A DNA stretch of 50,670 nt from an uncultured Bdellovibrionales bacterium (GCA_964655155.1 CAZZLV010000001.1:1-50670), one strand, 5' to 3'; shown: positions 1,737 to 47,237, counted from the stretch's first letter. Made by a program: numbers and translations. The notes: generated by a model not told the origin, from the sequence alone.

Positions 1737-1912
1737 CCTAAATTCAGCAGTTGCGGGCCCGAAAACGGCGCATCTGGCTAAAATCACTTCGTCTTTTGAA
1801 TTTTCGGTGCTCACCCTGACGGTGCCAGGGTTGCGCCTTAAGAAAAGTTCAAAATAGATCGTGCTTTTGAGCCTCTGCACCATTTTCACCCTCCTTAACT
1901 GCCGAATTTAGG
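1737..1912 (+). mobile_element. F1 MITE-like repeat, copy 1 (176 bp)
   Basis: Starts CCTAAATTCAGCAGTT and ends AACTGCCGAATTTAGG, with core CACCCTGACGGTGCCAGGG. About 90% identical to the other F1 copies. Flanks are TTGAA and TTCAA. Confidence 0.85.
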
Positions 1913-2048
1913 TTCAATCTTTTGGCCCCGCTTTACTCTGCAAACCCGCTCCTTACAATGGCAGCTAATGCTACAGTTGCTGCATTAGCTGAATATGTAT
2001 TGAGTGGCGTAATACTCGGGATACTTTAAAGAGATCCGAAGGGATATC

Positions 2049-3536
2049 TCAAGTGGAGTCGCGCAGTACAAACGCCACTTTGTTGTCGATATGGTCTGTA
2101 ACCCAGCTCTGATCCCACCATTCGTTTGGTGAAACGGGGATTCCGTGAGCACGAATCTCAAAGTAAACCTCCTCTGATTGGGCCAGCCCAGTCGTTCCGG
2201 TTTTACCAATCTCTTCTCCTCGCTGCACGGGTGTGCCGCGTTGAACGGTGACATCAGAGAGGTGCCCATAGATACTTGAGAGTCCGAATCCGTGATCAAC
2301 GATTATCGTATTTCCGAGTAGGCCAAGCATTCCTATGAATACTACCGTTCCGTTGTTCGCGGCCACCACAGGTGTACGCTTGTTGACGGGAAAACGGACA
2401 CCAGAGGAGACTCCGCGCATGATTTCTGTTGAATCGACCAGTATGACTCTCGTGTCACCAGCAGAGTTAGTCGGCGCAGAGCCTACAGGAGGCAGAAAAG
2501 CCTCTGCCCAGGAACGATTCTGTGCACTCTGAGATAGCGCAGTACTGACGAAGCCCTCATCACTAATAGCTAGGGTCTTGATCACGCTCTTTAGGTCAGT
2601 GGTAAGGTCTCCGGTCTCCTTAGCCTTGAGATTCTCTCGCTTGGAATAGCTGAAAAGCTCGTCGCGAATCAGGCTGCCTCTCTCGACCGTTAAGTTGCTG
2701 CGGAATGATGACCAGCGCCGTTGCTTGATCCGGTAGTTAAAGGAGGTTGTCGCGGAGTTCCCGAGATTGTCACGAGCGATAAGCCGCAGCTTTTCGGTTG
2801 AAGCGTCGAATGAGGCGGGGATCGGATACAACGCTATATACAGATTCGAGCGAGTCTTTAACCCTTCGTTCCAGCCGCCTGCCTGAAAGCCGCTGTACAG
2901 AGAGCCCTGTCCAAGTACCCCGTGAGCCTCTGGTGGCTTGCCAGTTACCCTGTAAAAGACCATCTCAGTGCCGCCGAGGACTCCGTTTTGTTGAGGCGTT
3001 AGCGCTGTAATTTGAGGTTTGAGATAGTTTACCTCAACCACCGCTGATAGCCTTGCGCTGTTATTCCAAAGCGACTTATCAAACGCGAGTACCTGCAATT
3101 CAGCGTTCCCCTCTTTAAGGTCGAGCTCTTTTGGGTTTACTGCGGCTTCGATCGTATCATTAAGTATTTTGGTAAATCCGAAGGTTTTGCGGGCTAATTC
3201 CCTCGATTCGTTGTTCTGAACAATTCGGACTATAACTTCATCGAGACCCGCACCGCTATCGGCCGCAGCTATGGCAACGGTTATCGCTTCTGCCCCAAGA
3301 CCTCGTGGTACCTCATGCCAAGCCAGAGAGGGGGGAGCATCCTCAATGAAGGATAGCGAAAGTGGATTTGTATGGGTCAGCTGCATGAACGCAACTACGC
3401 CTGCGCTTATAATTGAACCAGCGACGATTAGTAGCATCAACAAAAAAGTAATTCCACCCGATTCGTCGCTGGCATATCTGAGCCGATAGTAAACGCCGGG
3501 CATCACTGAGTCCTTAGTCGGCATTAATTCTTCCAT
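2049..3536 (-). CDS. M23 family metallopeptidase (LytM domain) with N-terminal membrane anchor
   Basis: C-terminus has IVDHGFGLSSIYGHLSD..VQRGEEIGKTGTTGLAQSEEVYFEIRAHG (HxxxD / HxH M23 signature). The start is uncertain: 3536, 3524 or 3503. The longest form overlaps the glyQS stop. Confidence 0.8.
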   Translation of the reverse strand: MEELMPTKDSVMPGVYYRLRYASDESGGITFLLMLLIVAGSIISAGVVAFMQLTHTNPLSLSFIEDAPPSLAWHEVPRGLGAEAITVAIAAADSGAGLDEVIVRIVQNNESRELARKTFGFTKILNDTIEAAVNPKELDLKEGNAELQVLAFDKSLWNNSARLSAVVEVNYLKPQITALTPQQNGVLGGTEMVFYRVTGKPPEAHGVLGQGSLYSGFQAGGWNEGLKTRSNLYIALYPIPASFDASTEKLRLIARDNLGNSATTSFNYRIKQRRWSSFRSNLTVERGSLIRDELFSYSKRENLKAKETGDLTTDLKSVIKTLAISDEGFVSTALSQSAQNRSWAEAFLPPVGSAPTNSAGDTRVILVDSTEIMRGVSSGVRFPVNKRTPVVAANNGTVVFIGMLGLLGNTIIVDHGFGLSSIYGHLSDVTVQRGTPVQRGEEIGKTGTTGLAQSEEVYFEIRAHGIPVSPNEWWDQSWVTDHIDNKVAFVLRDST

Positions 3537-5064
3537 GAACTATCGATAGCGCTTCAGTCACACTGATTCGATCCTGCTTTGTGGTATCTCGATCCCGAAT
3601 AGTGACCGTGTTGTCTTGCAAAGTTTGGTGGTCAACTGTTAGGCAGTAAGGAGTTCCTACCTCGTCGTGCCGCGAGTAACGTTTGCCGATTGATTGCTGC
3701 TCATCGTAGCTCGCATTGATACCGGCCTTAAAAAACTGATTAGAGATTGATCGCGCTACCTCCGGAAGGCCATCTTTTTTGAGTAGCGGTAGCACAGCAA
3801 CCTTATACGGAGCAAGTCGTGGGTGCAGTTTAAGCAGCACTCGCGTTTTTAGGGCTCCATCGGCGTCTATTCCCTGCTGCTCAGAGTATGCATCGCACAG
3901 ATATGCGAGAACAGCTCTAGTCAACCCGGCAGCTGGCTCGATCACATACGGCAGGAAACGCACCCCTGGTTTGCCAGTTACTGGGTCTAACTTATTCTGG
4001 TCAAAATATGAGAGTTTTGCGCCCGATTCCTCGGAGTGCTTGGTGAGATCATAGTCAGTTCTTGACGCGATCCCCTCTAATTCATCCCAGCCCCACGGAT
4101 ATTCAAACTCGATGTCACAACAGGTGTCGGCATAATGAGCCAGCTCGTCTTGCTCGTGCTGTCGAACTCGAAAAGCCGATTTGTTGTTGGCATACCGTTG
4201 CCACCACTGCATGCGCTGCTCTGTCCAGTAGGTGTGCCACTCACGTTGTGTGCCCGGCTCGCAGAAAAACTCCATCTCCATCTGCTCGAATTCACACGTT
4301 CTGAAGATAAACTTCTCTGTAGTCACCTCGTTACGGAATGATTTGCCTTGTTGTGCTATTCCGAACGGAACCTTCATCGACATCGTTTGTTGAACATTTA
4401 GAAACTGGACAAACATAGCTTGCGCAGTCTCTGGGCGTAGATAAATCGCCGTTGATTTAACTGCTTCATCAACCTTTTCCCGAAGCTCGGTTCGTGAGAG
4501 CTGCTTGCCGTGGATCTGATCTAGGAGGTTCTCGATCGGATCCACTGGCCCTATCGATGTGCGAAACATTAAGTTGAATTGGCGCTCACTGGATAGTTCG
4601 GAGCTGCCGCAATGCGGGCACACATAACCGCATTCACCGACGGTTCCAGTGCTCTTCTGGCCACCACTCTTGCCTCCTTTTACCCATGTAATTGGCGTGT
4701 TTGGCTTGAGTTGGGGAGCTTTGTCAGCGCGGAAACGCTCTTTACAGTTTAAACAATCAACGAGCGGATCGGAGAATCCAGCGAGGTGACCACTGGCCTT
4801 CCATACACTTGGGTGCATGAGGATCGATGCATCGATGCCGACGATGTCCTCGCGTTCATGCACCATTGCACGCCACCACTCGGCAGCGATATTGCGCTTA
4901 AGCTCCACACCGAGAGGCCCATAATCGTAGGCACTCTTTAGTCCGCCATAAATCTCACTACTTTGAAACACGAAACCTCTGCGCTTTGTAAGCGAGACGA
5001 TCTTTTGAAGAATTTCGGATTTCTGAAGAGTCTCAGATTTCTGAGGAGAAGGTGGGAGGCTCAT
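3514..5064 (-). CDS. glyQS: Glycine--tRNA ligase, single-chain alpha2 type
   Basis: Class II aaRS motifs (FRNE..FRTCEFEQMEMEFF; GLTRAVLAYL) and a C-terminal anticodon-binding domain. I prefer the ATG at 5064 (MSLPPSP...) because AAGGA lies 6-7 nt upstream. The track ORF extends to 5094. Confidence 0.9.
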   Translation of the reverse strand: MSLPPSPQKSETLQKSEILQKIVSLTKRRGFVFQSSEIYGGLKSAYDYGPLGVELKRNIAAEWWRAMVHEREDIVGIDASILMHPSVWKASGHLAGFSDPLVDCLNCKERFRADKAPQLKPNTPITWVKGGKSGGQKSTGTVGECGYVCPHCGSSELSSERQFNLMFRTSIGPVDPIENLLDQIHGKQLSRTELREKVDEAVKSTAIYLRPETAQAMFVQFLNVQQTMSMKVPFGIAQQGKSFRNEVTTEKFIFRTCEFEQMEMEFFCEPGTQREWHTYWTEQRMQWWQRYANNKSAFRVRQHEQDELAHYADTCCDIEFEYPWGWDELEGIASRTDYDLTKHSEESGAKLSYFDQNKLDPVTGKPGVRFLPYVIEPAAGLTRAVLAYLCDAYSEQQGIDADGALKTRVLLKLHPRLAPYKVAVLPLLKKDGLPEVARSISNQFFKAGINASYDEQQSIGKRYSRHDEVGTPYCLTVDHQTLQDNTVTIRDRDTTKQDRISVTEALSIVHGRINAD

Positions 5065-5356
5065 TGTAGGTCCTTGCAAACTATGAAGTAACAAAACTAT
5101 GCAGAAAAAACTCGGTAAAAGCAGTAGCGCTAGCTGATCGCCGCACTGAACATGAACTATTGAAGCTACCCCTAAAATGGACGTTTCTCAAGAGGTGATA
5201 CGGCCTGCGGGGATAGTATGATGAGCCCCAGTATCTCGCTATATGAGTATTATTATGATCCATTGATTGTATGATTGGGGCATTCAGTGATTGGCGATTT
5301 GGGGGGTGTGAAAGGATCTCGGTTGGGGTACCCTTATTAGATACGGGGGACTCTTT

Positions 5357-6607
5357 ATGAGAATAGCGATCGTTGGTGGGGTTAGAACTGCTTTTGTAAA
5401 GGCTGGAGGGGTGTTTTCGCACTATTCTAGTCTTGATCTAGGTAAGCATGTGGTTGTTTCTTGTGTAGAGAAGTTTGGTATCAACCCTAGTATAATCGAT
5501 GAGCTTCATTTCGGCACTGTGTTGTTAGATCCGCGCTATCCTAATCTGGCGCGGGAAATTGTGCTTCGCTCCGGACTTCCTAAGACTATCTCGGGTCACT
5601 TTGTTTCAAACAACTGCATAACTGGCCTAGTTGCGGCATGCGTAGCAGTCGATGCGATCGCTTCGGGGCGAATTAGGGCCGCTATCGTTGGAGGTAGTGA
5701 ATCGATGTCATGCCCCACACTCACCTTCCCGCGTAAGGGCGAGGAGTTTTTTATCAGGATGAATAGGGCAAGAACGATTAAGGAGCGGCTCGGTCTGTTG
5801 AGACGTTTTCGTCCTAAGTTTCTCGCGCCACAGGCGCCAAGTCCAAAGGAGCCATCGACTGGTCTAACAATGGGGCAGCACTGCGAGCTTATGGCACAAG
5901 AGTCTGCAATAACTCGCGCCGATCAGGATGCGCTCGCATTTACGAGTCATATAAATGCAGCGGCAGCCAGAGATGCTGGGATCTTGGCTGCCCAGATAGT
6001 GCCACTCGGAGGTGTTGGTGAGGATAATCTTGTAAGGTCTGATACCTCCCTTGAGAAGTTGAGATCCCTGCCCGCTGTTTTCGATCGCAGTGCGCTTGGT
6101 TCGATCTCTGCTGGCAATTCAAGCGCGTTAACCGATGGTGCATCGGCGGTGTGTCTAATGGCCGAGGATGTTGCTCGTGAGCAGGGGTTGCCGATCCAAG
6201 GCTACATTGAGGCGATCGATTTTGCGGCCGTTCCGCCTGGGGACGGATTGCTTATGGGGCCAGTGGTCACCTTGCCGAGGGTCATGCGTCGGCTCTCATG
6301 GGAAGTTGCGAGTGTTGATCTCTTTGAAATTCATGAAGCGTTTGCTGCGCAGGTTCTCTGTAATTTAAAGGCTTGGGAAGATGGGTGGTCTTGCTATCCA
6401 GGGGAGATACCGCTCGGGCCTATTCCAAGAGATCGGATCAACGTCCTTGGTGGGTCAATAGCCCTGGGGCACCCTTTTGCAGCTACTGGCGGCCGACTTT
6501 TGATTAATGCCTGCGATGCCCTTCGTGCTCGAGGTGGTAAGAGGGCAGTAATAAGTGTCTGCGCTGCTGGTGGCGGTGCCGCTGCGGCAGCAGTTTCAGT
6601 ACCGTGA
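5357..6607 (+). CDS. Acetyl-CoA C-acyltransferase (thiolase family, FadI/FadA-like)
   Basis: N-terminal MRIAIVGGVRTAFVKAGG, an active-site Cys region, and C-terminal GGSIALGHPFAATGGRL and VCAAGGG thiolase signatures. Confidence 0.85.
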   Translation: MRIAIVGGVRTAFVKAGGVFSHYSSLDLGKHVVVSCVEKFGINPSIIDELHFGTVLLDPRYPNLAREIVLRSGLPKTISGHFVSNNCITGLVAACVAVDAIASGRIRAAIVGGSESMSCPTLTFPRKGEEFFIRMNRARTIKERLGLLRRFRPKFLAPQAPSPKEPSTGLTMGQHCELMAQESAITRADQDALAFTSHINAAAARDAGILAAQIVPLGGVGEDNLVRSDTSLEKLRSLPAVFDRSALGSISAGNSSALTDGASAVCLMAEDVAREQGLPIQGYIEAIDFAAVPPGDGLLMGPVVTLPRVMRRLSWEVASVDLFEIHEAFAAQVLCNLKAWEDGWSCYPGEIPLGPIPRDRINVLGGSIALGHPFAATGGRLLINACDALRARGGKRAVISVCAAGGGAAAAAVSVP

Positions 6608-6670
6608 GCGGCCATGGTTATTAATTCGTCAATTAAATATCCGTCGCTCGATGGGCTCTGATCGATTTGA

Positions 6671-6892
6671 CCTAAATTCGGCAGTGCAGGCGGATGAAAA
6701 TGGCGCATCTGGTTAAACCTCAATTCGGCAGTTGCGGGCCCGAAAACGGCGCATATCGCTAAAATCACTTTGTCTTTTGAATTTACGGTGCTCACCCTGA
6801 CGGTGCCAGGGTTGCGCCTCCGAAAAGTTCAAAATCCATCGTTCTTTTAGCCACCTGCACCATTTTGGCTCACCTTAATTGCTCTTTTTAGG
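6671..6892 (+). mobile_element. F1 MITE-like repeat, copy 2: a 47-nt extra left-arm fragment (6671-6717) followed by a full copy (6718-6892)
   Basis: CCTAAATTCGGCAGTGCAGGCGGATGAAAATGGCGCATCTGGTTAAA is followed directly by CCTCAATTCGGCAGTTGCGGGCCCGAAAACGG...CTTTTTAGG. Confidence 0.8.
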
Positions 6893-7040
6893 TTTAATTG
6901 CCGTCTTAATAAGTGCGTGAATGCGGTAAGCAAACAGGCCATCGATTGCCTATTCCCGACTATTTTCAAGTCGACCATAGCTAGCTTCGTTAAAAATAGG
7001 TGCTACTTAAGTCCTTTGGGCAATTCCCCCAAAAAGTCCT

Positions 7041-7067
7041 TAAGAGAATTTGCAGAGCTGCCGTAGA
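7041..7067 (+). promoter_or_regulatory. Candidate sigma-28 (FliA) promoter for flagellin
   Basis: TAAGAGAA-N11-GCCGTAGA compared with the consensus TAAAGTTT-N11-GCCGATAA. It lies about 240 nt upstream of the flagellin ATG. Confidence 0.4.
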
Positions 7068-7304
7068 GGTATTTATCGGCAAGTCCGGTCTGTCTCTCGG
7101 GCCGTAGCGGTATCTCAGTTCAGAGACCAGGTAGTAGCAGTATCCCATCGTTGTAGCAATGGCGACGCAGGTGCGCGGGAGAGTTCAATCGAGTTCTCAG
7201 TGTGCTTTTGCTCGCTTTAACACTTCGGCGCCTCGCCTGCTTAAGAGTGCAGGACCTATCAAAGGAGTGATGGGAGCGTCGGATTAACATCAAGGAGGAA
7301 ATGT

Positions 7305-8168: not shown

Positions 8169-8214
8169 AAAGTTTCATAGGGTGGCGCATCACGTATATC
8201 GGGGTGCGTTACCC

Positions 8215-9970: not shown

Positions 9971-9986
9971 TGGTCTCGGCAAAGTG

Positions 9987-10315
9987 CTATAGTGATGTGC
10001 AAAAGTCCGTGCAAGTAAAACTGGCAAGGCTTTTGCCGTAAGTCACAATGGGTTGTTGTTTTGATTCGCATCCGCGAATCGATAGCGTTTGTCAAGAGCC
10101 GCTATATCGCCAAGGACTTTTGAACCTAAATTTGGCAGTTGCGGGCCCGAAAACGGCGCATCTGGCTAAAATCACTTTGTCTTTTGAATTTTCGGTGCTC
10201 ACCCTGACGGTGCCAGGGTTGCGCCTCCGAAAAGTTCAAAATCCTGTGTGCTTTTAGCCACCTGCACCATTTTCGTGCTCCTTAACTGCCGAATTTAGGT
10301 TGAAAAACGCTACAG
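9987..10315 (-). mobile_element. F2 repeat, copy a (reverse orientation), split into 9987-10124 and 10300-10315 by F1 copy 3
   Basis: The reverse complement matches the other F2 copies from CTATAG...AAATCACTATAG. The terminal about 20 nt resume after the F1 insert. Confidence 0.8.
10125..10299 (+). mobile_element. F1 MITE-like repeat, copy 3 (175 bp), inserted in F2 copy a
   Basis: CCTAAATTTGGCAGTT...AACTGCCGAATTTAGG, flanked by TTGAA at 10120-10124 and 10300-10304. Confidence 0.9.
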
Positions 10316-12748: not shown

Positions 12749-12924
12749 CCTAAATTCGGCAGTGGCGGGCACGAAAACGGCGCATCTGTCTAAAATCACT
12801 TCGTCTTTTGAATTTTCGGTACTCACCCTGACGGTGCCAGGGTTGCGCCTTAAGAAAAGTTCAAAATACTTCGTGCTTTTAGCCATCTGCACCATTTTCG
12901 TTCTCCTTAACTGCCGAATTTAGG
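12749..12924 (+). mobile_element. F1 MITE-like repeat, copy 4 (176 bp)
   Basis: CCTAAATTCGGCAGTG...AACTGCCGAATTTAGG. Flanks are TTTAA and TTGAA. It lies in the divergent region between the ATPase gene and manA. Confidence 0.88.
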
Positions 12925-16770: not shown

Positions 16771-16916
16771 CTATAGCGTTTTTCAAAAGTCATGAGCGAT
16801 ATAGCGTTTAGAAAACCCTATTGATTCGCTGACGCGAATCAAAACAACAACCTATAGTGATTTACGGCAAAAGCCTTGCTAGTTTTACTGGCACGGACTT
16901 TTGCAAATCACTATAG
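16771..16916 (+). mobile_element. F2 repeat, copy b (146 bp)
   Basis: CTATAGCGTTTTTCAAAAGTC...GATTCGCTGACGCGAATC...CTATAGTGATTTACGGCAAAAGCC...GGACTTTTGCAAATCACTATAG. Its last 32 nt overlap the 3' end of dapE. Confidence 0.85.
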
Positions 16917-18075
16917 GTTTAACTGCCATAGAGTTCAGGATTGAGCGGTATATATGAACTAGGTCAACAAGCTCAGAGATATCTAGTCCCTCGTCAATTT
17001 TGTGAATCGTTTCGTTTGAAGGGCCTAACTCAACAACCTCAGCAGCACGCTCAGCTATGAAGCGCCCGTCGGATGTTCCGCCATCTCGAGAGAGTTTTGG
17101 TGCATGACCGAGCTCACGTAAAGTTTTGGAGACTACTTCGCGTAACACTCCCTTTCTAGAGTCATATGGTTTTGAATCCTGCATCCACGATACCTCAACA
17201 GATACAGAGCTATCCACTAAGATTGGTGTGAGTCGATCGATCAATTCCTGCCTTGTTAGCGGAGATCGAAATCTGATGTTAAATTTGAACTCAGCTTGAC
17301 CAGGAACAACGTTGGTTCCTGCCCCGGTTCCTGCATGTAGCGACGATACCTGAAGCGATGATGGGGGCCACCCACAGTCACCTTCTGAGCGATCGACCTC
17401 GGGCAATCCGAGATCGATATCAAATGCTAAAAGCCGGTTAATTATTCGGACAGCCGCGTGGATTGCATTCTCAGCCAAGTGCGGGTACGCAACATGACCC
17501 TGAACACCATGAACCGAAACCTTTGCACTCAGTGATCCACGTCGACCGATTTTGAAGCAGTCTCCGAGTCGTTTGTTGGCAGTTGGCTCACCGACTAGAC
17601 ACGAATCAATCTTCTTGCCCTGTGAGTCTAGGAGTGCCAGCAATGCTGGAGTGCCCTCTGATTGCACCTCTTCATCGCCCGCTATCAGCAGCGCTAGGGG
17701 CAGCTCAGAGTTGGGATTGGCGCCCAGGAAGTCTTCAAGAGCGATAATCCAAGCAGCAACCGACCCTTTCATATCGGCAACACCGCGACCAAGGAGACGT
17801 TCTCCAACAACGGTGCCTTGAAATGGATCCACACTCCAGCCCTCGCCAGCAGCAACAACATCAGTGTGGCCGGCAAACGCAAAATAGGCTGGACCGTTTC
17901 CCCTAAAAGCCAAAAGATTGTTGCAGTGTTTTAACGGGGCGTACTCTACCTTAAACCCAAGACCCTTGAGTCGCTCGGCCAGTAGCTCCTGACCGCCATT
18001 GTCAAATCCATCTGTGTTGGATCTTTTCACCAATTCTACGGTTAATGATACCACTCGATCGCGCACTGTTGTCAT
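16885..18075 (-). CDS. dapE: Succinyl-diaminopimelate desuccinylase (M20 peptidase)
   Basis: FAGHTDVV, GRGVADMKGS, GRRGSLSAKVSVHGVQGHVAYPHLAENAIH and GGTSDGRFIA..VVELGPSNETIHKIDE closely follow the E. coli DapE pattern. Confidence 0.85.
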   Translation of the reverse strand: MTTVRDRVVSLTVELVKRSNTDGFDNGGQELLAERLKGLGFKVEYAPLKHCNNLLAFRGNGPAYFAFAGHTDVVAAGEGWSVDPFQGTVVGERLLGRGVADMKGSVAAWIIALEDFLGANPNSELPLALLIAGDEEVQSEGTPALLALLDSQGKKIDSCLVGEPTANKRLGDCFKIGRRGSLSAKVSVHGVQGHVAYPHLAENAIHAAVRIINRLLAFDIDLGLPEVDRSEGDCGWPPSSLQVSSLHAGTGAGTNVVPGQAEFKFNIRFRSPLTRQELIDRLTPILVDSSVSVEVSWMQDSKPYDSRKGVLREVVSKTLRELGHAPKLSRDGGTSDGRFIAERAAEVVELGPSNETIHKIDEGLDISELVDLVHIYRSILNSMAVKPIVICKSPCQ

Positions 18076-20061: not shown

Positions 20062-21153
20062 ATGGACTCAACATCGGAATCCACTATAATTATTGATCGC
20101 TCTGCAGAATCCCGGGCGCGCTCTCCGCTCTGGATGGTAAGCCAGGAGCCGATTCTAAACGATCTCGTTTCGTACCTTGGTGCTGTCAAACAAGCTTTGC
20201 ACTCAAATCCTGATGCGAGTTGCAATATGAAGTTCTCCCGAGCTCACCTTAGAGATTGTCGGGCTGCATTTGATCGGATGATAAGGCGCGGAGAGGAGGC
20301 TTTGCATCGACTCTCTGAGCTGTTCTGTCGGTCGTTTTTTCACGCATACCAGATGCAGAGCGTTGTGATAGGGGAGGTACCTGCTACTCGGGAGAGGTTT
20401 ACCCTAATGCAGCCGTTGTCGTTGGCTGACCTGTATTCGACGATCGATCTGGATCTAGGTAATCGTCAGTTGCGCAAGCTAAAGTATTTTGATGGGCATG
20501 GATGGGCAAGTCCTAATCTTGTAGCCAATGTCGTTGAATATCAGCCTACTGAGGTTAATCCCGCAGGTATTCACAAAATTATAAGTCGTATTAAGGCGGA
20601 AGAGGAGCTTTGGAACAAGGTAGTCGACGAGATCTTTGGGCTAGATGCGATAGTTAAACTAGATAAGGAGCTCAAGCATCTGAGTCATTACGTGAAAGAT
20701 GTTTTCGGACTAAAAATTGTTGTCGGTAGCGCACACGATGCTGATGTACTTCATAATGTGCTCAAGGCCCTTTCGTGGAGCGACAATGAGTTGGAGTCAG
20801 CGGGGATACGTCCCCGTGAGAGTGGGCGGTGTTTAGAGTTTGTTGAGACCAAGAATTACTTAACCGGCCATGATAAGGAGAGTGGTTGGGAAGCCATCAA
20901 ATCAGTAGTGATGTGGGCTGATAGGGTATTTGAGATTCAGGTGCAGCCACTCGGTAATTTTTGGCGCGAGCGTGAATTTTTGACCCGCGAGAGTCACGCT
21001 GGATTCAAGAATCGCCGCGAACAGATCAGACAGCAGATAGCTGCGCATATTCCACTCTTTAGTTTCTACCAAGATCTGCTGATCTGGCTATTCCAAAATC
21101 CCGACGGCCCAGCCCCGGCATTTCCGGGTGTTTCGGTGGCGCTGGTAGACTAG
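20062..21153 (+). CDS. Divergent RelA/SpoT-fold (RSH-like nucleotidyltransferase) domain protein; function unknown
   Basis: Residues ~175-330 carry, in RSH order, IISRIKAEEELWNKV, VKDVFGLKIVVGS, ESGWEAIKSVVMW, RVFEIQVQPLGNFW and SHAGFK. The start codon is uncertain (no clear SD at 20062 or 20134). Confidence 0.5.
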   Translation: MDSTSESTIIIDRSAESRARSPLWMVSQEPILNDLVSYLGAVKQALHSNPDASCNMKFSRAHLRDCRAAFDRMIRRGEEALHRLSELFCRSFFHAYQMQSVVIGEVPATRERFTLMQPLSLADLYSTIDLDLGNRQLRKLKYFDGHGWASPNLVANVVEYQPTEVNPAGIHKIISRIKAEEELWNKVVDEIFGLDAIVKLDKELKHLSHYVKDVFGLKIVVGSAHDADVLHNVLKALSWSDNELESAGIRPRESGRCLEFVETKNYLTGHDKESGWEAIKSVVMWADRVFEIQVQPLGNFWREREFLTRESHAGFKNRREQIRQQIAAHIPLFSFYQDLLIWLFQNPDGPAPAFPGVSVALVD

Positions 21154-21179: not shown

Positions 21180-21355
21180 CCTAAATTCGGCAGCTGCGGG
21201 CCTGATAATAGCACATCTGACTAAAATCACTCTGTCTTTTGCTTTTTCAGTGCTGACCCTGACGGTGCCAGGGTTCAAGCCTCCGAAAAGTTCAAAATCC
21301 TTGGTGCTTTTAGCCACCTGCACCATCTTCGTTCTCCTTAACTGCCGAATTTAGG
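21180..21355 (+). mobile_element. F1 MITE-like repeat, copy 5 (176 bp)
   Basis: CCTAAATTCGGCAGCT...AACTGCCGAATTTAGG. It starts 26 nt after the stop of the upstream gene. Flanks are TTTAT and TTGAA. Confidence 0.88.
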
Positions 21356-22115: not shown

Positions 22116-22176
22116 CATGAATTCGGCAGTTGCGGGTCTGAAAAGTTCAAAATCCTCCTTAACTGCCGTTTTTAGG
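22116..22176 (+). mobile_element. F1 mini-derivative, copy 6 (61 bp)
   Basis: CATGAATTCGGCAGTTGCGGGTCTGAAAAGTTCAAAATCCTCCTTAACTGCCGTTTTTAGG. It keeps both F1 termini and the GTTCAAAATCC centre piece, with the rest of the interior deleted. Confidence 0.75.
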
Positions 22177-23758: not shown

Positions 23759-24524
23759 TATGAGTTTGTTGAAGATTTCAGATCTACGAGCAAGAATCGA
23801 TGGGGATGGTCGTGAGATTCTCAAGGGGATATCGCTCGAGATTAAGCCCGGTGAAGTACACGCTATTATGGGAGTGAACGGCTCCGGTAAGAGCACATTG
23901 GCCAATATTCTAGGTGGTAAAGAAGGGTACGAAGTCACCGCTGGTTCGGTAACGTTCGATGGAAAAGACCTATTAGAGATGGATCCCGAGATCCGCGCTC
24001 GCGAGGGGCTATTTCTTGGATTTCAGTACCCAGTAGAGCTGCCAGGAGTACTGACGACCTATTTTTTGAGGACAGCTTTAAATTCTGTTCGTGAACATCG
24101 TGGGCAGCCGCAGATGTCGGTTCGTGAGTTTGCCGCATTTGTGAAAGAGAAGGCGAAGCTGTTGGAGCTTAGCGACGATCTGCTTCAGCGTGCTGTAAAC
24201 GAAGGTTTCTCGGGTGGCGAGAAGAAGCGCAACGAAGTATTTCACATGGCAGTTCTTGAGCCCAAACTAGCGATACTAGATGAGACTGACTCGGGGCTGG
24301 ATATCGATGCTTTGCAGACGGTTGCCGAAGGTGTGAACCGGCTGCGATCGGCTGAGCGTGGTATGCTCGTAATTACGCACTATCAGCGCCTGCTAAATTA
24401 TATTGTTCCCGATGTTGTGCATGTGATGATCGATGGGCGCATAGTTCAGTCCGGTGGCAAGGAGCTTGCTTTAGAGCTGGAGCAGCGTGGCTACAACGAT
24501 TTTCGCCCAGCGCTAGAGGTTTAG
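23759..24524 (+). CDS. sufC: Fe-S cluster assembly ATPase SufC
   Basis: MSLLKISDL start, Walker A GVNGSGKST, signature FSGGEKKR, Walker B LAILDETDSGLD. The track ORF begins further upstream at 23718. Confidence 0.92.
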
Positions 24525-24619
24525 CCCGAATATTGCACGACAGTGCAAGATTCGGGCGAGCAAGTGCAAGGAAGCACTTGCAAATTCCGAAGCGCAGCGA
24601 GCTTCGTGAAAAATACGGG
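24525..24619 (+). mobile_element. F3 repeat, copy a (95 bp), between sufC and sufD
   Basis: CCCGAATATTGCACGACAGTGCAAGATTCGGG...CGTGAAAAATACGGG, flanked by TTAG at 24521-24524 (which includes the sufC stop) and 24620-24623. Confidence 0.8.
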
Positions 24620-26191: not shown

Positions 26192-26367
26192 CCTAAATTC
26201 AGCAGCTGCGGGCCCGAAAACGGCGCATCTTGCTAAAATCACAGCGGCTTTTGAATTTTCGGTGATCACCCTGACGGTGCCAGGGTTCAAGCCTCCGAAA
26301 AGTTCAAAATCCTTTGTGCTTTTAGCCACCTGCACCATTTTCGTTCTCCTTAACTGCTGAATTTAGG
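26192..26367 (+). mobile_element. F1 MITE-like repeat, copy 7 (176 bp)
   Basis: CCTAAATTCAGCAGCT...AACTGCTGAATTTAGG, flanked by TTGAA on both sides (26187-26191 and 26368-26372). Confidence 0.9.
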
Positions 26368-39271: not shown

Positions 39272-39282
39272 TCTGGGGCCTT

Positions 39283-41870: not shown

Positions 41871-41936
41871 GAATGGGGTATCCTGGAGATGCTCCGCTTG
41901 GACCTTTGCCTATTAGCGAAAGATTTTAGATTAGGG

Positions 41937-42085
41937 CTATGGCTTTTTTCAAAAGTGATTAGCAATATAGCGGCTTTTGGAAAACGCTATCGAATCGCGG
42001 ACGCGAATCAAAACGACAATCTATAGTGATTTAAGGCAAAAGCCTTGCCAGTTTTACTGGAACGGACTTTTGCAAATCACTATAG
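41937..42085 (+). mobile_element. F2 repeat, copy c (149 bp)
   Basis: CTATGGCTTTTTTCAAAAGTG...GAATCGCGGACGCGAATC...AAATCACTATAG. Confidence 0.85.
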
Positions 42086-42213
42086 AGACCACGCCTGTCC
42101 TTGAGGATAATAAGATCAAGCATGTTTTCGCAAGTAGTTGATATATAGAGGAGATTAAGCCAAAAAAATGGCAGCAGAAGTGTATTAGCTAGCTGCTTGT
42201 CCAGCAAATATGA

Positions 42214-42361
42214 ATATAGCATTTTTCAAAAGTCATTAGCGACTTAACGGCTTTTGGAAAAGGCTATCGATTGGCGGACGCGAGTCAAAACAACAACCTA
42301 CAGTGATTTACGGCAAAAGCCTTGCCAGTTTGCTGGCACGGACTTTTGCAAATCACTATAG
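42214..42361 (+). mobile_element. F2 repeat, copy d (148 bp)
   Basis: ATATAGCATTTTTCAAAAGTC...GATTGGCGGACGCGAGTC...AAATCACTATAG, same orientation as copy c and 128 bp downstream of it. Confidence 0.85.
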
Positions 42362-42446
42362 CGCTTTGCAGACACGCAGCTGTTCCTCTTTGAGGCCTAA
42401 AACGCTTATACTAATCGGCGTTAATCAAAAGCTAATTAGCCAGCCT

Positions 42447-43166: not shown

Positions 43167-43185
43167 CCGTCAGTGAGGAGATGCA

Positions 43186-43791
43186 ATGGCAGCAGAACGA
43201 GCTAGATCGGTGTGGGTGATAGGAGTAACGGGTGCCAGTGGCGTGCGCTATGCGATGCGCCTATTGCAGGTGTTACCGAGCCTTGTGGATGAAGTTCATT
43301 CAGTTTTCTCGGAGGCTGCTTTGCGAGTCTTGAACGATGAAGAGGGGCTGGCGATTAGTCAGTCAACTCTTAGTTTAGAGAAGCTATGTGGGTGTGTAGC
43401 TAACAACGTTACTTTCTATAACAGTAGAGATATCGGAGCAAGAATAGCCTCGGGTTCTATGTTGACCTCTGGGATGGTGATTATTCCCTGCTCTATGTCT
43501 ACGCTTGGTGCCCTCGCGCAAGGAATTCCCAGTCACCTGGTACATCGAGCTGCAGATGTGACGATGAAAGAAGGCCGGAAGCTGATTATCGTTCCGCGGG
43601 AAACACCACTTTCACCGATTCATCTCGAGAATATGTTAAAGCTATCACGATACGGGGTAAAGGTGATACCCGCTATGCCGGCTTTCTACAATCGGCCGAC
43701 TTCGATAGATGAGCTGGTTGACCAGTTTGTAATGAAAGTGCTTGATGGAATGGGGGTGGCGCATACTCTTGGTCGCCGCTGGAAAGAGTAA
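43186..43791 (+). CDS. ubiX: Flavin prenyltransferase UbiX
   Basis: VIGVTGASGVRYAMRLLQVL, about 200 aa, located next to a UbiA-family gene. Confidence 0.85.
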   Translation: MAAERARSVWVIGVTGASGVRYAMRLLQVLPSLVDEVHSVFSEAALRVLNDEEGLAISQSTLSLEKLCGCVANNVTFYNSRDIGARIASGSMLTSGMVIIPCSMSTLGALAQGIPSHLVHRAADVTMKEGRKLIIVPRETPLSPIHLENMLKLSRYGVKVIPAMPAFYNRPTSIDELVDQFVMKVLDGMGVAHTLGRRWKE

Positions 43792-43796
43792 TACTC

Positions 43797-44657
43797 ATGG
43801 GGGTAATTGCTAATAGGTTGGTTTTGTGGGGCAGTCTTATACGCTTCTCCCATTCGGTATTTGCGCTCCCGTTTGCGGTAATAATGATTGTAGTGGTGAG
43901 TCGCAGCTATCCGGTTACATGGCAGCAGCACGCATTGCTCTTGGTATGCATAGTGGCAGCTCGGTCGGCTGCTATGGCTTTTAATCGAATTGTCGATGCT
44001 AACATAGACGCAGACAATGAGCGCACGGAAAATCGCGAGATCCCTAGTGGTCGAGTTTCGATTCGAGAGGCCCAGTTGTTCACTGTTGCAGCATCTTTTG
44101 TTTTTATTGCTGGATCTTTCAAACTCGGATGGCACTGCGGCGTGTTGTCTGTTCCCGTACTCGGAATTCTGTTTGGATATTCGTTTGTGAAGCGATTTTC
44201 TAACCTATGTCACTTTATCCTGGGGATAGCACTGGCGCTCGCTCCAGGAGGTGCTTGGTATGCGTTAACGGCAATATGGTCGTGGCAGCCTGTGCCGCTG
44301 ATGGTGAGTGTTATGTTTTGGGTCGCTGGATTTGATATTCTTTACGCCTGCCAGGATGAAAAGTTCGACCGCGCCTACGGGTTAAAGAGTATCCCAAGCT
44401 CTGTGGGAGTTGTTCGTGCGCGTATTGCGTCTTTGATCTTGCATGGTCTAAGCCTCTTTTTTTTAGCGCATTTCGGGGTAAGCTTCGAGCTAGGAATCTG
44501 GTTTTGGTGTGGAGCTGCTATATTTGCAGTATTGATAGCAGGACAGCACGTAGTGGTGTATCGACACGGATTAAGCTCGATTGATCAGCTGTTTTTCGTC
44601 CGTAATGGTTTGGCTAGCATTGCGCTGCTAGGGTTTGTTGTGCTTGACCAGTGGTAG
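43797..44657 (+). CDS. ubiA: UbiA-family aromatic prenyltransferase (UbiA or MqnP type)
   Basis: Polytopic protein with the Asp-rich motif NRIVDANIDADNERTENREIPSG and a second YACQDEKFD motif. Confidence 0.75.
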   Translation: MGVIANRLVLWGSLIRFSHSVFALPFAVIMIVVVSRSYPVTWQQHALLLVCIVAARSAAMAFNRIVDANIDADNERTENREIPSGRVSIREAQLFTVAASFVFIAGSFKLGWHCGVLSVPVLGILFGYSFVKRFSNLCHFILGIALALAPGGAWYALTAIWSWQPVPLMVSVMFWVAGFDILYACQDEKFDRAYGLKSIPSSVGVVRARIASLILHGLSLFFLAHFGVSFELGIWFWCGAAIFAVLIAGQHVVVYRHGLSSIDQLFFVRNGLASIALLGFVVLDQW

Positions 44658-44667
44658 TACAGATTAT

Positions 44668-44902
44668 CCTAAATTCGGCAGTTGCGGGTCTGAAAATGGC
44701 GCATCTAACTAAAATCACTTTGTCTTTTGAATTTTCGGTGCTCACCCTGACGGTGCCAGAGCTCAAGCCTTAAGAAAATTTCAAAATCCTTGGTGCTTTA
44801 AGTCCGAATATTGCACGAAAGTGCAAGATTCGGGCGAGCAAGTGCAAGGAAGCTGATTAGCCACCTGCACCATTTGCGTTCCCCTTAACTGCCGTTTTTA
44901 GG
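44668..44902 (+). mobile_element. F1 MITE-like repeat, copy 8 (235 bp including a nested F3 fragment)
   Basis: CCTAAATTCGGCAGTTGCGGGTCTG...AACTGCCGTTTTTAGG. It starts 10 nt after the ubiA stop. Confidence 0.88.
44803..44856 (+). mobile_element. F3 repeat, copy b (54-bp truncated copy) nested inside F1 copy 8
   Basis: TCCGAATATTGCACGAAAGTGCAAGATTCGGGCGAGCAAGTGCAAGGAAGC interrupts the F1 sequence GTGCTTTTAGCCACC. Flanks are TAAG and TTAG. Confidence 0.8.
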
Positions 44903-44923
44903 ATAAAATAAGTCGCACAGGGT

Positions 44924-45778
44924 TTAGCTCACTACGGCTGTACCACAGCCAGCTGCCCCAGTGATGGCCTGCGAAACAACAGCGCATCTAGCAGCATTGC
45001 ATATGATAGCGCGTTTACAGCCAGCTTGAAGAGCTCGTGTTGCGCATCGTACCTTGGGGACCATGCCACTATGTATTATCCCCTCAGCGATTAGTTGCTC
45101 AATAGTATTAGGCGAGAGTGAAGCTTGCACTACTTCCGATCTTTTAACGCCATCGACATCGGTCAGAAAGATGCAGGCTGATACCTGAAGTGCCCCTGCT
45201 AAGGCGGCTGCGGCATAATCAGCGTTTACATTAAGTGGCATGCCCTCGACTGTTTCAGCGACTGGCGATACGATCGGGATGTATCCAGCCTGAAGTAGCG
45301 CTTGGATCGGTGCTGTGTTGCAGCGCGTAACCTCACCGACTAATCCGAGGTCTCTGGCAGCGGAAGAGATGCTTTTATTACCCTCCAATAGGTGAGCATC
45401 GCGTCCGGAGATGCCGACCGCTGGAGTGCCGCAGCGCGTTATGCGCGACGCGAGGTCTTTGTTTATAGCTCCGGAGAGAACCATCTCAGTTGCTGCCATC
45501 GCGTCAGGATTCGTTACGCGCAGTCCGTCAATAAATTCAGAATGGATAGCAAGACGCTTAAGTGTACGAGAGATCTCTTTGCCCCCCCCGTGAACAACTA
45601 CCATTCTAATACCTACCTTTGAAATAGCAGCGATCTCTTCGCACACAGACTGCCTTACTTTGGCTGATTCCATAGCTGCGCCACCGTATTTCACAAGGTA
45701 ACAATGATCGCGGTGATCGAGGAGTTTGGGATAATCCTTAATAAGCTGAGAGGGTGTATATGTTGACACAGTTTGCAT
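44924..45778 (-). CDS. argB: Acetylglutamate kinase
   Basis: LVKYGGAAM, VVVHGGG and amino-acid kinase family features, located downstream of argC. Confidence 0.9.
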   Translation of the reverse strand: MQTVSTYTPSQLIKDYPKLLDHRDHCYLVKYGGAAMESAKVRQSVCEEIAAISKVGIRMVVVHGGGKEISRTLKRLAIHSEFIDGLRVTNPDAMAATEMVLSGAINKDLASRITRCGTPAVGISGRDAHLLEGNKSISSAARDLGLVGEVTRCNTAPIQALLQAGYIPIVSPVAETVEGMPLNVNADYAAAALAGALQVSACIFLTDVDGVKRSEVVQASLSPNTIEQLIAEGIIHSGMVPKVRCATRALQAGCKRAIICNAARCAVVSQAITGAAGCGTAVVS

Positions 45779-45799
45779 GGTCTTTAGCTTTCGTAAATT

Positions 45800-46855
45800 C
45801 TATACAGGCCCAAGAGCTGGAATTGTTAAGCCTGCATCTTCAGGGAGTCCGAGAAGGAGATTGAGATTCTGGATACATTGGCCAGCCATACCCTTGACCA
45901 GATTGTCGAGCGCACTGAACACCATGACCTGTCTGTCACGAACAACGATATGCAGGTCACAAAAATTAGTTCCAACGATGTCAACTAGCCTAGCTGGTTG
46001 ATTTCTAAGGCGCACGAACTGTGCCGATTGATAGAGGGATCGATATCGTTCAGGCAGAGCGGCTGCACTGGCTGCATTCCGACACGTTATGTAACACGAT
46101 ACGAGGCAACCACGTGAAACTGGCAAAAGATGAGGTGTAAACATGAATGAATCTCGCGCCGAGAACGTCGGGCCAAGGGCCTGCAGGATCTCTGGCTCAT
46201 GTCGGTGTTCAAGCACCTTGTATGCAGTGCAGTCGTGCGCACGACTAGGATGGTGCATCGATGGTTGTGGTTCGCGACCTGCGCCTGAGGTTCCTGTTTT
46301 GCCATCAACGGCCACATGGATAGCGGCATCAACATCACTCAGGGGTGCAAGCGCTAAGATCGCAGCGGTGGCCAGACAGCCTGGGTTGGTTATAAGTTGA
46401 GCCTTGGAAATTTGTTGTTTGGACTTAATCTCAGGAAGTCCGTATACAGCTTCGGATCGTAATTCAGGAGAAAAAGGTACATCTGGATAGTATTGAGAGT
46501 GAATCAGTGGGTCTTTTAGCCTTAGATCTCCTGATAGATCAATTACAGGTAGCTCTGAAGATATATCCTGAGATAATAATTCGTTGATTATCGGCACTGC
46601 TGTTCCTGTTGGAACTGAGCACACAATTGCGGCTCTTTTGTAGCGATTATGCCAATCCTTTTGGAGCTTTTCAGTAAACACGAGCGGGCAAATGCGCTCC
46701 AGATGAGAATGCACTGATGAGACAGTTTTCCCAGCATGCGAACGCGATACCACACCAGCAACCTCGATTGATGGATGTCCGGAGAGAAGTCGTAGCAACT
46801 CCCCAGCGCCGTATCCACTGCCGCCTATAATTGCTACTCCGAAATCTTTTTTCAT
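45800..46855 (-). CDS. argC: N-acetyl-gamma-glutamyl-phosphate reductase
   Basis: IIGGSGYGAGELLRLL Rossmann motif and active-site ITNPGCLATA. Confidence 0.9.
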   Translation of the reverse strand: MKKDFGVAIIGGSGYGAGELLRLLSGHPSIEVAGVVSRSHAGKTVSSVHSHLERICPLVFTEKLQKDWHNRYKRAAIVCSVPTGTAVPIINELLSQDISSELPVIDLSGDLRLKDPLIHSQYYPDVPFSPELRSEAVYGLPEIKSKQQISKAQLITNPGCLATAAILALAPLSDVDAAIHVAVDGKTGTSGAGREPQPSMHHPSRAHDCTAYKVLEHRHEPEILQALGPTFSARDSFMFTPHLLPVSRGCLVSCYITCRNAASAAALPERYRSLYQSAQFVRLRNQPARLVDIVGTNFCDLHIVVRDRQVMVFSALDNLVKGMAGQCIQNLNLLLGLPEDAGLTIPALGPV

Positions 46856-47060
46856 CCAGATCTCCTTTCAGTTGTATCTAATTGCTGTTGATCGGAGGTG
46901 AACTGAGGCTCGTTTATTTGTAGTGCAGAGATTAAGCCTGCCACCACATACACCTCGATGCTCAGCTAACGCACCCTCCGAAATAAGCCAAGTATGACAC
47001 ATTGATAACCAAAAGGGAGTGGCAGGGGAGTTTATGCACGCCCGCTAACTTATGCTTTAA

Positions 47061-47237
47061 CTTACATTCGGCAGTTGCGGGTCTGAAAATGGCGCATATG
47101 ATCAGAATCAAGTTGTTTCTCTAATTTTTGGGTGCGCACCTTCACGGTGCTATGCTTATAGACCCCGAATAGGTCACAACACTGCGCGCCTTTAGCCACT
47201 TGCACCATTTCAATCAGCGCCAACTGCCGAATTTATA
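47061..47237 (+). mobile_element. F1 MITE-like repeat, copy 9 (diverged)
   Basis: CTTACATTCGGCAGTTGCGGGTCTGAAAATGGCGCAT...GCACCTTCACGGTGC...TTAGCCACTTGCACCATTT...AACTGCCGAATTTATA. Only the ends and a few internal blocks are retained. Confidence 0.7.

Follow-up and report, generated by a model that had tools for sequence, protein, structure and literature searches.

F1, a palindromic MITE-like element with a shared orientation in an uncultured Bdellovibrionales bacterium

Copies of a short palindromic element, here called F1, recur along the DNA of an uncultured Bdellovibrionales bacterium, and all of them point the same way. This raises the question of what kind of element F1 is and what gives its copies a common orientation. 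The sequence searched is a stretch of 50,670 nt (the window), in which F1 copies were called by repeat comparison and with an nhmmer profile. As far as searchable sources show, the family is undescribed: it matches nothing in Rfam, and no paper on it turned up in the literature searched. Our analysis presents F1 as an ordinary element with one unexplained quirk, its shared orientation.

F1 copies in the window and in related genomes

The window contains eight full or near-full copies of F1, a 61-nt copy with internal deletions and a 42-nt left-end fragment (Table 1). The 19-nt core of the element occurs seven times in the window at no more than one mismatch, where 0.01 occurrences are expected by chance. 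All nine copies listed in a preliminary description of this DNA are present, with coordinates that are exact or off by a few bases. The second of them, given as 6671-6892, does hold a copy but is not a single unit: the left-end fragment, the bases TTAAA and a full copy follow one another in this range. The extra length of copy 8 is due to a nested hairpin repeat of ~56 nt from a different family. The paired terminal change described for copy 7 is real (A...T), and copy 1 carries the same left terminal change without compensation.

The uniform polarity first reported for nine of nine copies holds and now extends to all ten pieces, which lie on the + strand of the window (2 x 0.5^10 = 0.002). 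Despite the palindrome, the polarity of full copies is clear, with nhmmer scores of ~210-226 bits forward versus 64-94 bits in reverse. The mini copy was assigned from arm-specific motifs, GTTGCGGG on the left and CTCCTTAAC on the right.

Table 1. F1 copies and fragments in the window, with the 5-nt sequences that flank them on the left and right.
Feature	Position	Strand	Flanks (left / right)	Remarks
Copy 1, full, 176 bp	1737..1912	+	TTGAA / TTCAA	nhmmer, 217 bits forward vs 77 reverse
Left-end fragment, 42 nt	6671..6712	+		from an older copy; abuts copy 2; has left-arm-type GAAAATGGCGCATCTGG
Copy 2, full	6718..6892	+	TTAAA / TTTAA	nhmmer; right terminus of the TTTTT subtype
Copy 3, full	10125..10299	+	TTGAA / TTGAA	nhmmer; perfect target duplication
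Copy 4, full	12749..12924	+	TTTAA / TTGAA	nhmmer; between divergent genes
Copy 5, full	21180..21355	+	TTTAT / TTGAA	nhmmer
Mini copy, 61 nt	22116..22176	+	CTTAT / ATTAT	doubly deleted relic; both termini kept
Copy 7, full	26192..26367	+	TTGAA / TTGAA	nhmmer; perfect target duplication; termini with compensated change
Copy 8	44668..44902	+		nested ~56-nt hairpin repeat at 44798-44853
Copy 9, diverged	47061..47237	+		nhmmer; abuts a D4-family repeat

Elsewhere, 59 genome loci give 98 non-redundant F1 matches, and 120 metagenome contigs give 140. The hosts are uncultured freshwater bacteria, represented by metagenome-assembled genomes (MAGs) labelled Bdellovibrionota or Pseudomonadota. The match in Parazoarcus communis (L017) is to a 19-mer that occurs by chance and does not belong to an F1 element. 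Among the first 59 loci there are no shared orthologous or repeated long segments, and an exact-protein look-up for close strains gave no record for rplL. Many short-read contigs of the host bacteria, for example the sufD contigs, end within an F1 copy.

Relatives provide empty sites, which at a flank identity of ~75% are presence or absence at the level of the locus and not a base-by-base reconstruction. Copy 8 lies at a point where relatives have a tail-to-tail overlap of ubiA and argB; loci L065, L066, L067 and L068 carry no F1 there. The syntenic spacers in L065, L066 and L067 have no counterpart of copy 9, and L067 has one F1 copy at a site where the window has none. F1 decays by internal and one-sided deletions, and relics are common. 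The short matches do not form a propagating 'mini' subfamily: one is a double deletion, and the others are a heterogeneous set of copies truncated on one side. Copies also nest in and adjoin other repeats; copy 3, for instance, abuts a D4-family repeat at 9984-10124.

Ends, target site and palindrome of F1

The F1 unit is an imperfect palindrome of ~176 bp (172-180 bp) with perfect 16-bp terminal inverted repeats (TIRs), CCTAAATTCGGCAGTT / AACTGCCGAATTTAGG. Between subfamilies the termini co-vary, from ATT/AAT to AAA/TTT. Directly outside the ends CCTAAA...TTTAGG lies a 5-bp direct duplication of the target site (TSD), a feature absent from the preliminary description. Identity between the two 5-nt flanks is 84% at offset 0 and 22-32% (about 26%) at other offsets. 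The duplication is perfect in 33 of 64 end pairs, a count in which the ends are near-palindromic and many copies enter on both strands; duplications that are not purely AT include GTGAC, TTCAC and GTGAT. The target is the palindrome WTNAW, with T at position 2 in 38 of 40 sites, A at position 4 in all 40 and W at the outer positions, 1 and 5; beyond the pentamer these 40 sites share no motif. At its centre there is a mild purine excess (27 R versus 13 Y). An asymmetric target motif was considered as a source of the orientation bias and rejected, since the target is symmetric and lacks wider context.

The designation 'MITE-like' is thus borne out more strongly than first proposed, by the TIRs, the 5-bp TSD, the empty orthologous sites and the decay products. 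F1 is very probably a MITE, that is, a family of non-autonomous cut-and-paste elements of the DDE type. It has no conserved coding capacity. A Shine-Dalgarno sequence and an ATG are found on the bottom strand in 33 of 44 copies, and the frame is gone after ~16 codons, with changes that are mostly non-synonymous. A conserved peptide of the right arm (AAGGAG, 7 nt, ATG) was discarded as a candidate on the ground that its frame is not conserved.

The two arms are paired over 94% of cells, and 17 pairs have changed on both sides; shuffled controls give 11.2 (0/500) and controls with slid arms 7-10. Some of the compensated pairs belong to a helix at a distance of 45-55 nt from the ends. In 43 of 44 copies the fold of the bottom strand is more stable than that of the top strand by 8-10 kcal/mol, a result obtained with DNA as well as RNA parameters. 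Compensating substitutions appear to keep the F1 arms complementary, so that the long hairpin, or the two-fold symmetry, may matter for the spread of the element.

A transposase is not encoded in the window, as previously stated: none was found by Pfam among 20 flanking ORFs or by tblastn with IS1380-family transposases. The IS1380 family was suggested by the ends of F1. The termini CCTAAATTC...GAATTTAGG, together with the AT-rich 5-bp duplication, agree with ISEcp1/IS1380-family ends. Over its outer 9 bp, F1 is identical to the right end of ISEcp1 (GAATTTAGG) and differs from the ISEcp1 left end at one position; in the same comparison F1 has CCTAAATTC, ISEcp1 has CCTAGATTC / CCTAAATTC and a Ligilactobacillus member has CCTGAATTA. 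At greater length, the ISEcp1 left repeat (IRL) reads CCTAGATTCTACGT, the reverse complement of its right repeat (IRR) CCTAAATTCCACGT, the Ligilactobacillus IS1380 member CCTGAATTATTC and F1 CCTAAATTCGGCAG. Both ISEcp1 and F1 begin with CCTrrATT. The distant Ligilactobacillus member has CCTGAATT. An IS1247-like member has only the CC start in common with F1. ISEcp1 duplicates its target as 5-bp AT-rich direct repeats (PMC6061673), and F1 likewise duplicates 5 bp that are AT-rich. The 9-bp match is suggestive of kinship with ISEcp1 but not proof of it. The transposase that mobilises F1 would act in trans from another location and would most likely belong to the IS1380 (ISEcp1-like) family, with which F1 agrees in its terminal 9 bp and in its AT-rich duplication of 5 bp.

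F1 differs from IS1380 elements in its length of 176 bp and in having no transposase. Counted against the assignment is that IS1380 transposases usually begin 90-190 nt from the element end. Searches with tblastn for the ISEcp1, IS1247-like and Ligilactobacillus IS1380 transposases gave nothing at E <= 0.01 in the window and ~0.9 Mb of related loci, and the same sequence holds no parent insertion sequence (IS) with F1 termini. Three pairs of TIRs spaced 0.7-3.5 kb apart were examined as parent candidates. The pair in L078 consists of two MITEs around an acyltransferase-like ORF (identified by eye only), that in L005 of two MITEs flanking a YhcG/DUF1016 gene, and that in L121 of one MITE split by an IS110-family IS; all three were rejected.

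Orientation relative to replication and to neighbouring genes

Replication direction was read from GC skew corrected for gene orientation. When three long loci are cut into sub-windows of 2.5-8 kb, the sign obtained in this way is correct for 98-100% of them. F1 orientation agrees with the corrected skew in all ten pieces of the window, in a ratio of 24:3 in the MAG EUL_076 (~28 separate contigs, p = 5e-5) and of 13:4 in other MAGs. Some single MAGs are near 50:50 (icacos 7:4, ME2015 2:4, GL47 3:2), and the 120 independent metagenome contigs show no significant bias (33:28 by method A, 44:33 by method B). Within this metagenome set, internal full copies split 15:9, and neighbouring pairs are in the same orientation in 9 cases and in opposite orientation in 8. 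Pooled over everything except the window, the ratio is 70:35 (about 2:1). The replication-linked bias that had been proposed therefore holds in the window, in EUL_076 and in the other MAGs but not in the metagenome contigs. The link is uneven, strong in only two genomes (that of the window and EUL_076) and weak in others, and part of the evidence for it is one MAG and the very window that prompted the hypothesis. We consider it likely that F1 orientation has some real link to replication.

The best explanation overall, towards which we lean, is a MITE moved in trans whose uneven link to replication is set at insertion. As to the step itself, our best guess, put forward tentatively, is that orientation would be fixed when F1 inserts. 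Since the two ends of F1 differ in their conserved subterminal motifs, GTTGCGGG and GTTAAGGAG, the transposition complex would lack symmetry. Such a complex might capture targets at or behind the replication fork, with a strength that may vary with the host or the transposase variant. For whole ISs, orientation biases have been argued to stem from insertion and not from selection (PMC3971601). The bias is equally strong in truncated F1 relics (14:5) and in intact copies (27:11; Fisher p = 1.0). Copies that agree with the skew carry 18 differences (n = 19) and those that disagree 12 (n = 5; p = 0.3), and copy divergence is alike in biased and unbiased populations. None of copy age, relic ratio, hairpin strength and population divergence separates insertion bias from differential loss.

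Differential loss is the alternative that survives best, although we regard it as rather unlikely. Insertion would be random, and copies with the stabler hairpin on the lagging-strand template would be lost faster, through hairpin-stimulated slippage between the 5-bp duplications or through nuclease attack on hairpins, so that the orientation exposing the weaker hairpin would come to predominate. The favoured orientation does have the top strand, which is the weaker folder in nearly all copies, as its lagging-strand template, which is the predicted direction, and truncated and internally deleted relics are common. In E. coli, asymmetric palindromes are deleted on the lagging strand at rates that depend on their orientation, which also counts for this explanation. 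The hairpin asymmetry is family-wide, however, and hence counts as a single observation. The disfavoured orientation shows no excess of relics, and the surviving copies that disagree with the skew do not have weaker hairpins. These copies are slightly less diverged, which counts in favour of loss, but the age difference is not significant. Divergence is also the same in weak- and strong-bias populations, though the effect of loss should strengthen with age.

It is improbable that replication plays no part and that the window and EUL_076 are lineage-specific accidents, for example products of a few bursts or of regional history, in a family that inserts randomly. The metagenome ratios, the even split of neighbouring pairs and the three MAGs near 50:50 speak for such accidents. 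Against them stand the window (p = 0.002), the excess in EUL_076, which has the same direction and is spread over many contigs, the other MAGs and the pooled ratio outside the window; all subsets with more than a few copies lean one way.

Selection on the transcript, with F1 acting as a 3' UTR hairpin, terminator or mRNA stabiliser as has been proposed for ERIC, Correia and REP elements, had been offered as a further source of the polarity and is not supported by our data. We think it highly likely that F1 orientation is not linked to transcripts, and this particular role is very improbable. The + strand gene stops at 1547, 6607, 21153, 22095, 26058 and 44657 are as originally given, six copies in the window do lie 10-190 nt past such a stop, and F1 folds as a long hairpin of strongly negative energy. 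The remaining copies in the window, however, follow - strand genes or sit between divergent genes. In 68 copies from other genomes, orientation is independent of either neighbour (28 co-directional and 27 opposed for the gene on the 5' side, 26 and 22 for that on the 3' side). No T-run follows the hairpin, and copies 1-4 contain no terminator-like or promoter-like consensus. With Rfam 15, only tRNAs reach the gathering score in the window, and copy 3 is unmatched at E <= 1. A transcript role cannot explain the polarity, because the RNA hairpin of a near-palindrome forms from either strand.

Single-strand insertion, also part of the earlier proposal, is the least probable reading and hardly credible: F1 as an HUH/Y1 element (an IS200/IS605-derived PATE, or a REPIN moved by a RAYT) would directly yield a lagging-strand orientation bias, and F1 shares with such elements a long hairpin-forming palindrome and with IS608 (IS200/IS605) a bias relative to replication (cited in PMC3971601), but HUH elements lack TIRs and target duplications and insert with one side against a fixed sequence of four or five nucleotides, whereas F1 has both hallmarks of double-strand DDE chemistry, in its perfect 16-bp TIRs and the variable 5-bp duplication on both sides of a symmetric WTNAW target. 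Incidentally, Pfam found no Y1 transposase or RAYT near the copies in the few ORFs searched.

Comparison with known elements and implications

Correia elements of Neisseria have 26-bp TIRs and a TA duplication, and the roles proposed for them are at the transcript level. F1 resembles them in being short, non-coding, bounded by TIRs, flanked by TSDs, intergenic, multicopy and hairpin-folding, with internally deleted variants. The TIRs are unrelated in sequence, and the TSD is TA in Correia elements and 5 bp in F1. A replication-related orientation bias of Correia elements is not described in the literature searched. ERIC/IRU and REP/BIME sequences are imperfect intergenic palindromes of 100-180 nt with a definable polarity, and their orientation effects are tied to transcripts. 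The imperfect intergenic palindrome and the polarity are common to these sequences and F1; unlike them, F1 has an orientation that is independent of neighbouring genes and bears TIRs and TSDs that clearly mark recent transposition of the DDE type.

Orientation preferences relative to GC skew have been surveyed for ISs, where they are family-specific, vary by host group and are not explained by gene co-orientation (Gomez et al. 2014, PMC3971601); the orientation bias of F1 resembles them in these respects. The IS1380 family showed no orientation bias in that survey, which scored the transposase genes of autonomous ISs and did not treat MITEs; F1 has no gene. In the literature searched we found nothing on the orientation of MITEs relative to replication.

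F1 is abundant in uncultured freshwater Bdellovibrionota-like bacteria and breaks their short-read assemblies. Compensation along the whole palindrome suggests that, in a bacterial MITE, constraint on the hairpin or on symmetry reaches beyond the 16-bp ends. If the replication polarity holds in closed genomes, the orientation bias known from ISs would extend to a gene-less element. Because F1 is gene-less, transcription-replication conflict would then drop out as an explanation, and attention would turn to the transposition complex or the behaviour of hairpins at the fork. One possibility, which we consider doubtful, is that F1 is a gene-less DDE-type MITE integrated or retained with a fixed polarity relative to the fork, and that compensatory evolution preserves its full-length hairpin because of a role as single-stranded DNA at the fork. 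If this is true, F1 would couple cut-and-paste spread to lagging-strand synthesis, more tightly in some hosts than in others.

Copy number, polarity and insertion hallmarks of F1

F1, a family of imperfect palindromes of about 176 bp, is a true dispersed repeat. Searching the window for repeats recovered 6–8 copies in register, and the nine intervals of the preliminary description (copies 1–9 along the window) align as a single family; the interval called copy 2 is not a single unit, being a fragment plus a full copy. With up to one mismatch allowed, the window has seven occurrences of the 19-nt core CACCCTGACGGTGCCAGGG, where chance would give 0.01. A profile made from six window copies scores 210–226 bits on the forward strand and 64–94 bits on the reverse, so that polarity is well defined, the imperfect palindrome notwithstanding. 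Arm-specific motifs (GTTGCGGG after the left terminus, CTCCTTAAC before the right) place both the left-end fragment and the mini copy in the + orientation. All ten F1 pieces lie on one strand (two-sided p = 0.002), and their uniform orientation had rightly been considered statistically notable.

Directly outside the terminal CCTAAA...TTTAGG lies a 5-bp direct duplication. The 5-nt flanks are 84% identical in register versus 22–32% at six other offsets, and the duplication is perfect in 33 of 64 end pairs, a set comprising the window and 59 related loci in which many copies are counted once per strand because of their near-palindromic ends. Non-AT duplications (GTGAC/GTGAC, TTCAC/TTCAC, GTGAT/GTGAT) show that the inverted repeat does not simply continue into the flanks. 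Reconstruction gives W-T-N-A-W as the target, with T at position 2 in 38/40 sites and A at position 4 in 40/40; the sites hold no information beyond the pentamer. Syntenic contigs from four related populations (UbiA 78–80% identical) lack copies 8 and 9, and ubiA and argB overlap tail to tail in all four at the position of copy 8. One of the four, L067, carries an F1 copy in an intergenic position that is free of F1 in the window. One-sided truncations are numerous, head-to-tail arrays have a single 5-bp spacer in common (ATAAT/ATTAT), and in one locus a copy has inserted, oppositely oriented, into another at an internal TTAAA. Duplication, empty sites, nesting, arrays and truncations are characteristic of a MITE that a DDE transposase mobilizes. 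F1 is a real MITE family of a well-known kind, apparently undescribed as far as we found. The target-site duplication contradicts an HUH-type version of the single-strand insertion that had been proposed.

Coordinates of F1 pieces, companion repeats and associated features
Feature	Location	Strand	Remarks
F1 left-end fragment, 42 nt	window 6671–6712	+	precedes TTAAA, then full copy 2
F1 copy 2, full	window 6718–6892	+
F1 copy 8			over-long; holds nested 56-nt hairpin repeat of another family
F1 mini copy, 61 nt		+	relic: two internal deletions, both ends retained
F1 bottom-strand ORF (example)	window 10299 down to about 10190	−
F1 array	L006 2–419
F1 nested copies	L018 3532–3897
F1 array	L057 2782–3021
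F1 core, chance match	L017 2285–2303		Parazoarcus communis
D4 copy	window 9984–10124	−
D4 copies	window 16772–16919, 41938–42087, 42215–42365, 47236–47386	+
D4 copies outside window	L065 4761–4909; L066 3484–3632; L046 773–921
D6 copies	window 24520–24599; 44798–44854; 48197–48274; 48279–48334		second within F1 copy 8; third inverted
IS110-family element	L121 1346–2985		metagenome contig Ga0172372_10062572
326-aa ORF of this element	L121 1766–2743	−	Pfam DEDD_Tnp_IS110, Transposase_20
363-aa ORF	window 20062–21153	+
ubiA–argB junction	window 44600–44960		compared with L065 2427–2575, L066, L067

Candidate transposase and upkeep of the palindrome

As the preliminary description held, the window contains no recognizable transposase, none being found among its 20 ORFs scanned against Pfam. 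The F1 termini and the AT-rich 5-bp duplication resemble those of ISEcp1. As annotated in plasmid pC15-1a, ISEcp1 has CCTAGATTCTACGT at its left end and, as reverse complement, CCTAAATTCCACGT at its right; F1 carries CCTAAATTCGGCAG at both ends. An IS1380-family element of Ligilactobacillus carries CCTGAATTATTC at both ends; its transposase shares only 27% identity with that of ISEcp1. An IS1247-like family member has only the initial CC in common with these termini. ISEcp1 generates 5-bp AT-rich direct repeats (PMC6061673), a feature it has in common with F1. That F1 is IS1380-related, and probably mobilized in trans by a transposase of this family, is something we can only infer from its ends and its duplication, since tblastn with three family members found no match in either the window or related loci totalling about 0.9 Mb.

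In 44 full copies from several species, 94% of the cells of the consensus hairpin are paired. Changes on both sides occur in 17 of 40 hairpin pairs, exceeding both the column shuffles (11.2; 0/500 reach 17) and the slid partners (7–10) used as controls for covariation. The compensations extend beyond the transposase-binding termini, and a helix 45–55 nt from each end alternates between GGCTAAAA/TTTTAGCC, ACTCAAAA/TTTTGAGC and ACTCGAAA/TTTCGAGT. Left/right asymmetries are identical across all subfamilies, which therefore descend from one asymmetric ancestor and not from repeated fold-back events. Thus either the symmetry or hairpin is under constraint or the arms are homogenized.

The bottom strand of the right arm carries a perfect AAGGAG Shine-Dalgarno motif, a 7-nt spacer and an ATG in 33/44 copies, opening an ORF of 23–55 codons (MVQVLKSTKDFEFFGG...). 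Its frame is not conserved past about 16 codons, and it could be left over from the start of a gene in the parent element or have arisen by chance.

Orientation, replication and neighbouring genes

Top-strand GC skew in the window is positive for genes on both strands (+ genes, +0.154; − genes, +0.013), and rpoBC and the ribosomal-protein operon lie on the + strand, indicating that the top strand is leading throughout. For each related locus, replication skew was estimated independently of gene orientation, either by averaging the skew of + genes with that of − genes (method A) or by subtracting a 0.07 coding-strand term (method B). The window's rule is obeyed by 38/46 copies at the 59 genome loci (method A, p = 9e-6), or by 32/40 with one copy per locus. 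In a uniform pipeline, agreeing and disagreeing copies number 24:3 (A) or 27:4 (B) in EUL_076, a single MAG carrying F1, and 13:4 (A) or 16:11 (B) in the other MAGs combined. A scan of metagenome contigs, used as an independent test with unchanged measures, did not confirm a strong effect (33:28, A; 44:33, B), and filtering by skew or by the length of contigs did not help; the ratio was 15:9 for internal full-length copies, and neighbouring copies on one contig had the same orientation in nine cases and opposite orientations in eight. This weak result is not the fault of the skew method, which was correct in sign for 98–100% of sub-windows of 2.5–8 kb cut from the window, L067 and L069. Pooling all non-window data, the rule holds in 70/105 (A) or 87/135 (B) copies. 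Overall the association reaches significance at about 2:1, but it is clearly uneven, with two genomes showing it very strongly and others weakly. Populations with and without the bias have equally diverged copies (mean pairwise identity 0.84–0.86) and are not separated by subfamily clustering. The replication-linked orientation suggested earlier is therefore supported in part: by the window, EUL_076 and the pooled data, but not by the metagenome set.

We tentatively, and only slightly, favour a bias at insertion over loss of copies. Orientation would be set by the transposition step, and the two subterminal regions differ in a conserved way that would make the complex suitably asymmetric. A survey of whole insertion sequences attributed orientation biases to the transposition mechanism, varying between host groups (PMC3971601); as a counterpoint, the same survey found no bias for IS1380 (PMC3971601).

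Orientation-dependent loss, which we consider rather doubtful, would draw on the bottom strand folding 8–10 kcal/mol more stably than the top in 43/44 copies: in the favoured orientation the weaker top strand is the lagging-strand template, the direction predicted if stable hairpins on that template favour deletion. However, the hairpin asymmetry is one family-level trait and not 44 independent observations, the share in the disfavoured orientation is no higher among relics than among intact copies (14:5 versus 27:11), hairpins are no weaker in the disagreeing copies that survive, and the lower divergence of these copies is not significant. That orientation has no mechanistic link to replication at all seems improbable.

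Selection on the transcript, the other proposal of the preliminary description, is rejected. For 68 strong matches beyond the window, the 5′ neighbour is co-directional in 28 cases and opposed in 27, and the 3′ neighbour in 26 and 22; window copies follow + genes and − genes and lie between convergent and between divergent genes. Together with the lack of promoter-like or terminator-like consensus inside copies 1–4 and of any Rfam match to F1, this independence leaves a 3′-UTR role unsupported.

Companion repeats, host range and effects on the genome

Genes beside F1 in the window are ordinary chromosomal ones according to Pfam (peptidase M23, thiolase, flagellin, sufBCD, nusG, ubiE, ubiA, argB, argC and a response regulator), and from size, position and syntenic counterparts we identify two long ORFs as rpoB and rpoC. 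The 363-aa ORF lies right after a tRNA-Thr/Tyr/Trp cluster and matches nothing in Pfam at E ≤ 0.001; it is separated from nusG by a DUF3617 gene and the genes sufB, sufC and sufD.

Two other small repeat families occur here. D4, of about 150 nt, has two hairpins and CTATAG-type ends; 7 of the 18 copies found directly adjoin F1 (window copies 3 and 9; L016, L028, L048, L075, L116), and its end ...CTATAGGTTTAA includes an F1 target. Between argC and the response-regulator gene, the D4 copies of the window and L065/L066 share 91.6% identity, where flanking genes reach only about 75%; this D4 copy was thus either gained recently by both lineages or kept for a function. D6, a 55–80 nt hairpin (CCCGAATATTGCAC...GTGCAAGATTCGGG), is REP-like in look, with one member inserted in F1 copy 8. 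IS110-type elements target repeated sequences; in a single case, L121, an IS110-family element splits an F1 copy at about position 131–134.

Lake and river MAGs that carry the label Bdellovibrionota or Pseudomonadota bacterium contain the F1 core, as do at least 120 freshwater metagenome contigs. The window corresponds to a whole contig, 50,670 bp long, from an NCBI assembly. An exact core in Parazoarcus communis lacks the surrounding F1 and is a chance match, so the 19-nt core alone is not diagnostic. Many metagenome contigs terminate inside an F1 copy, about half of the metagenome matches lying at a contig end; L063 and L064, two Logan contigs of 1.6 kb on which the window's SufD-like protein is encoded, and many of the metagenome contigs L071–L190 stop 60–80 nt into F1. 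F1 is thus one of the chief causes of contig breakage in these organisms.

UbiA has 307 aa in L065/L066, and in relatives its gene overlaps argB tail to tail by about 45 nt. The window form has 286 aa, stopping 21 codons short, and F1 copy 8 occupies the junction; the insertion thus coincides with altered C-termini of two housekeeping genes.
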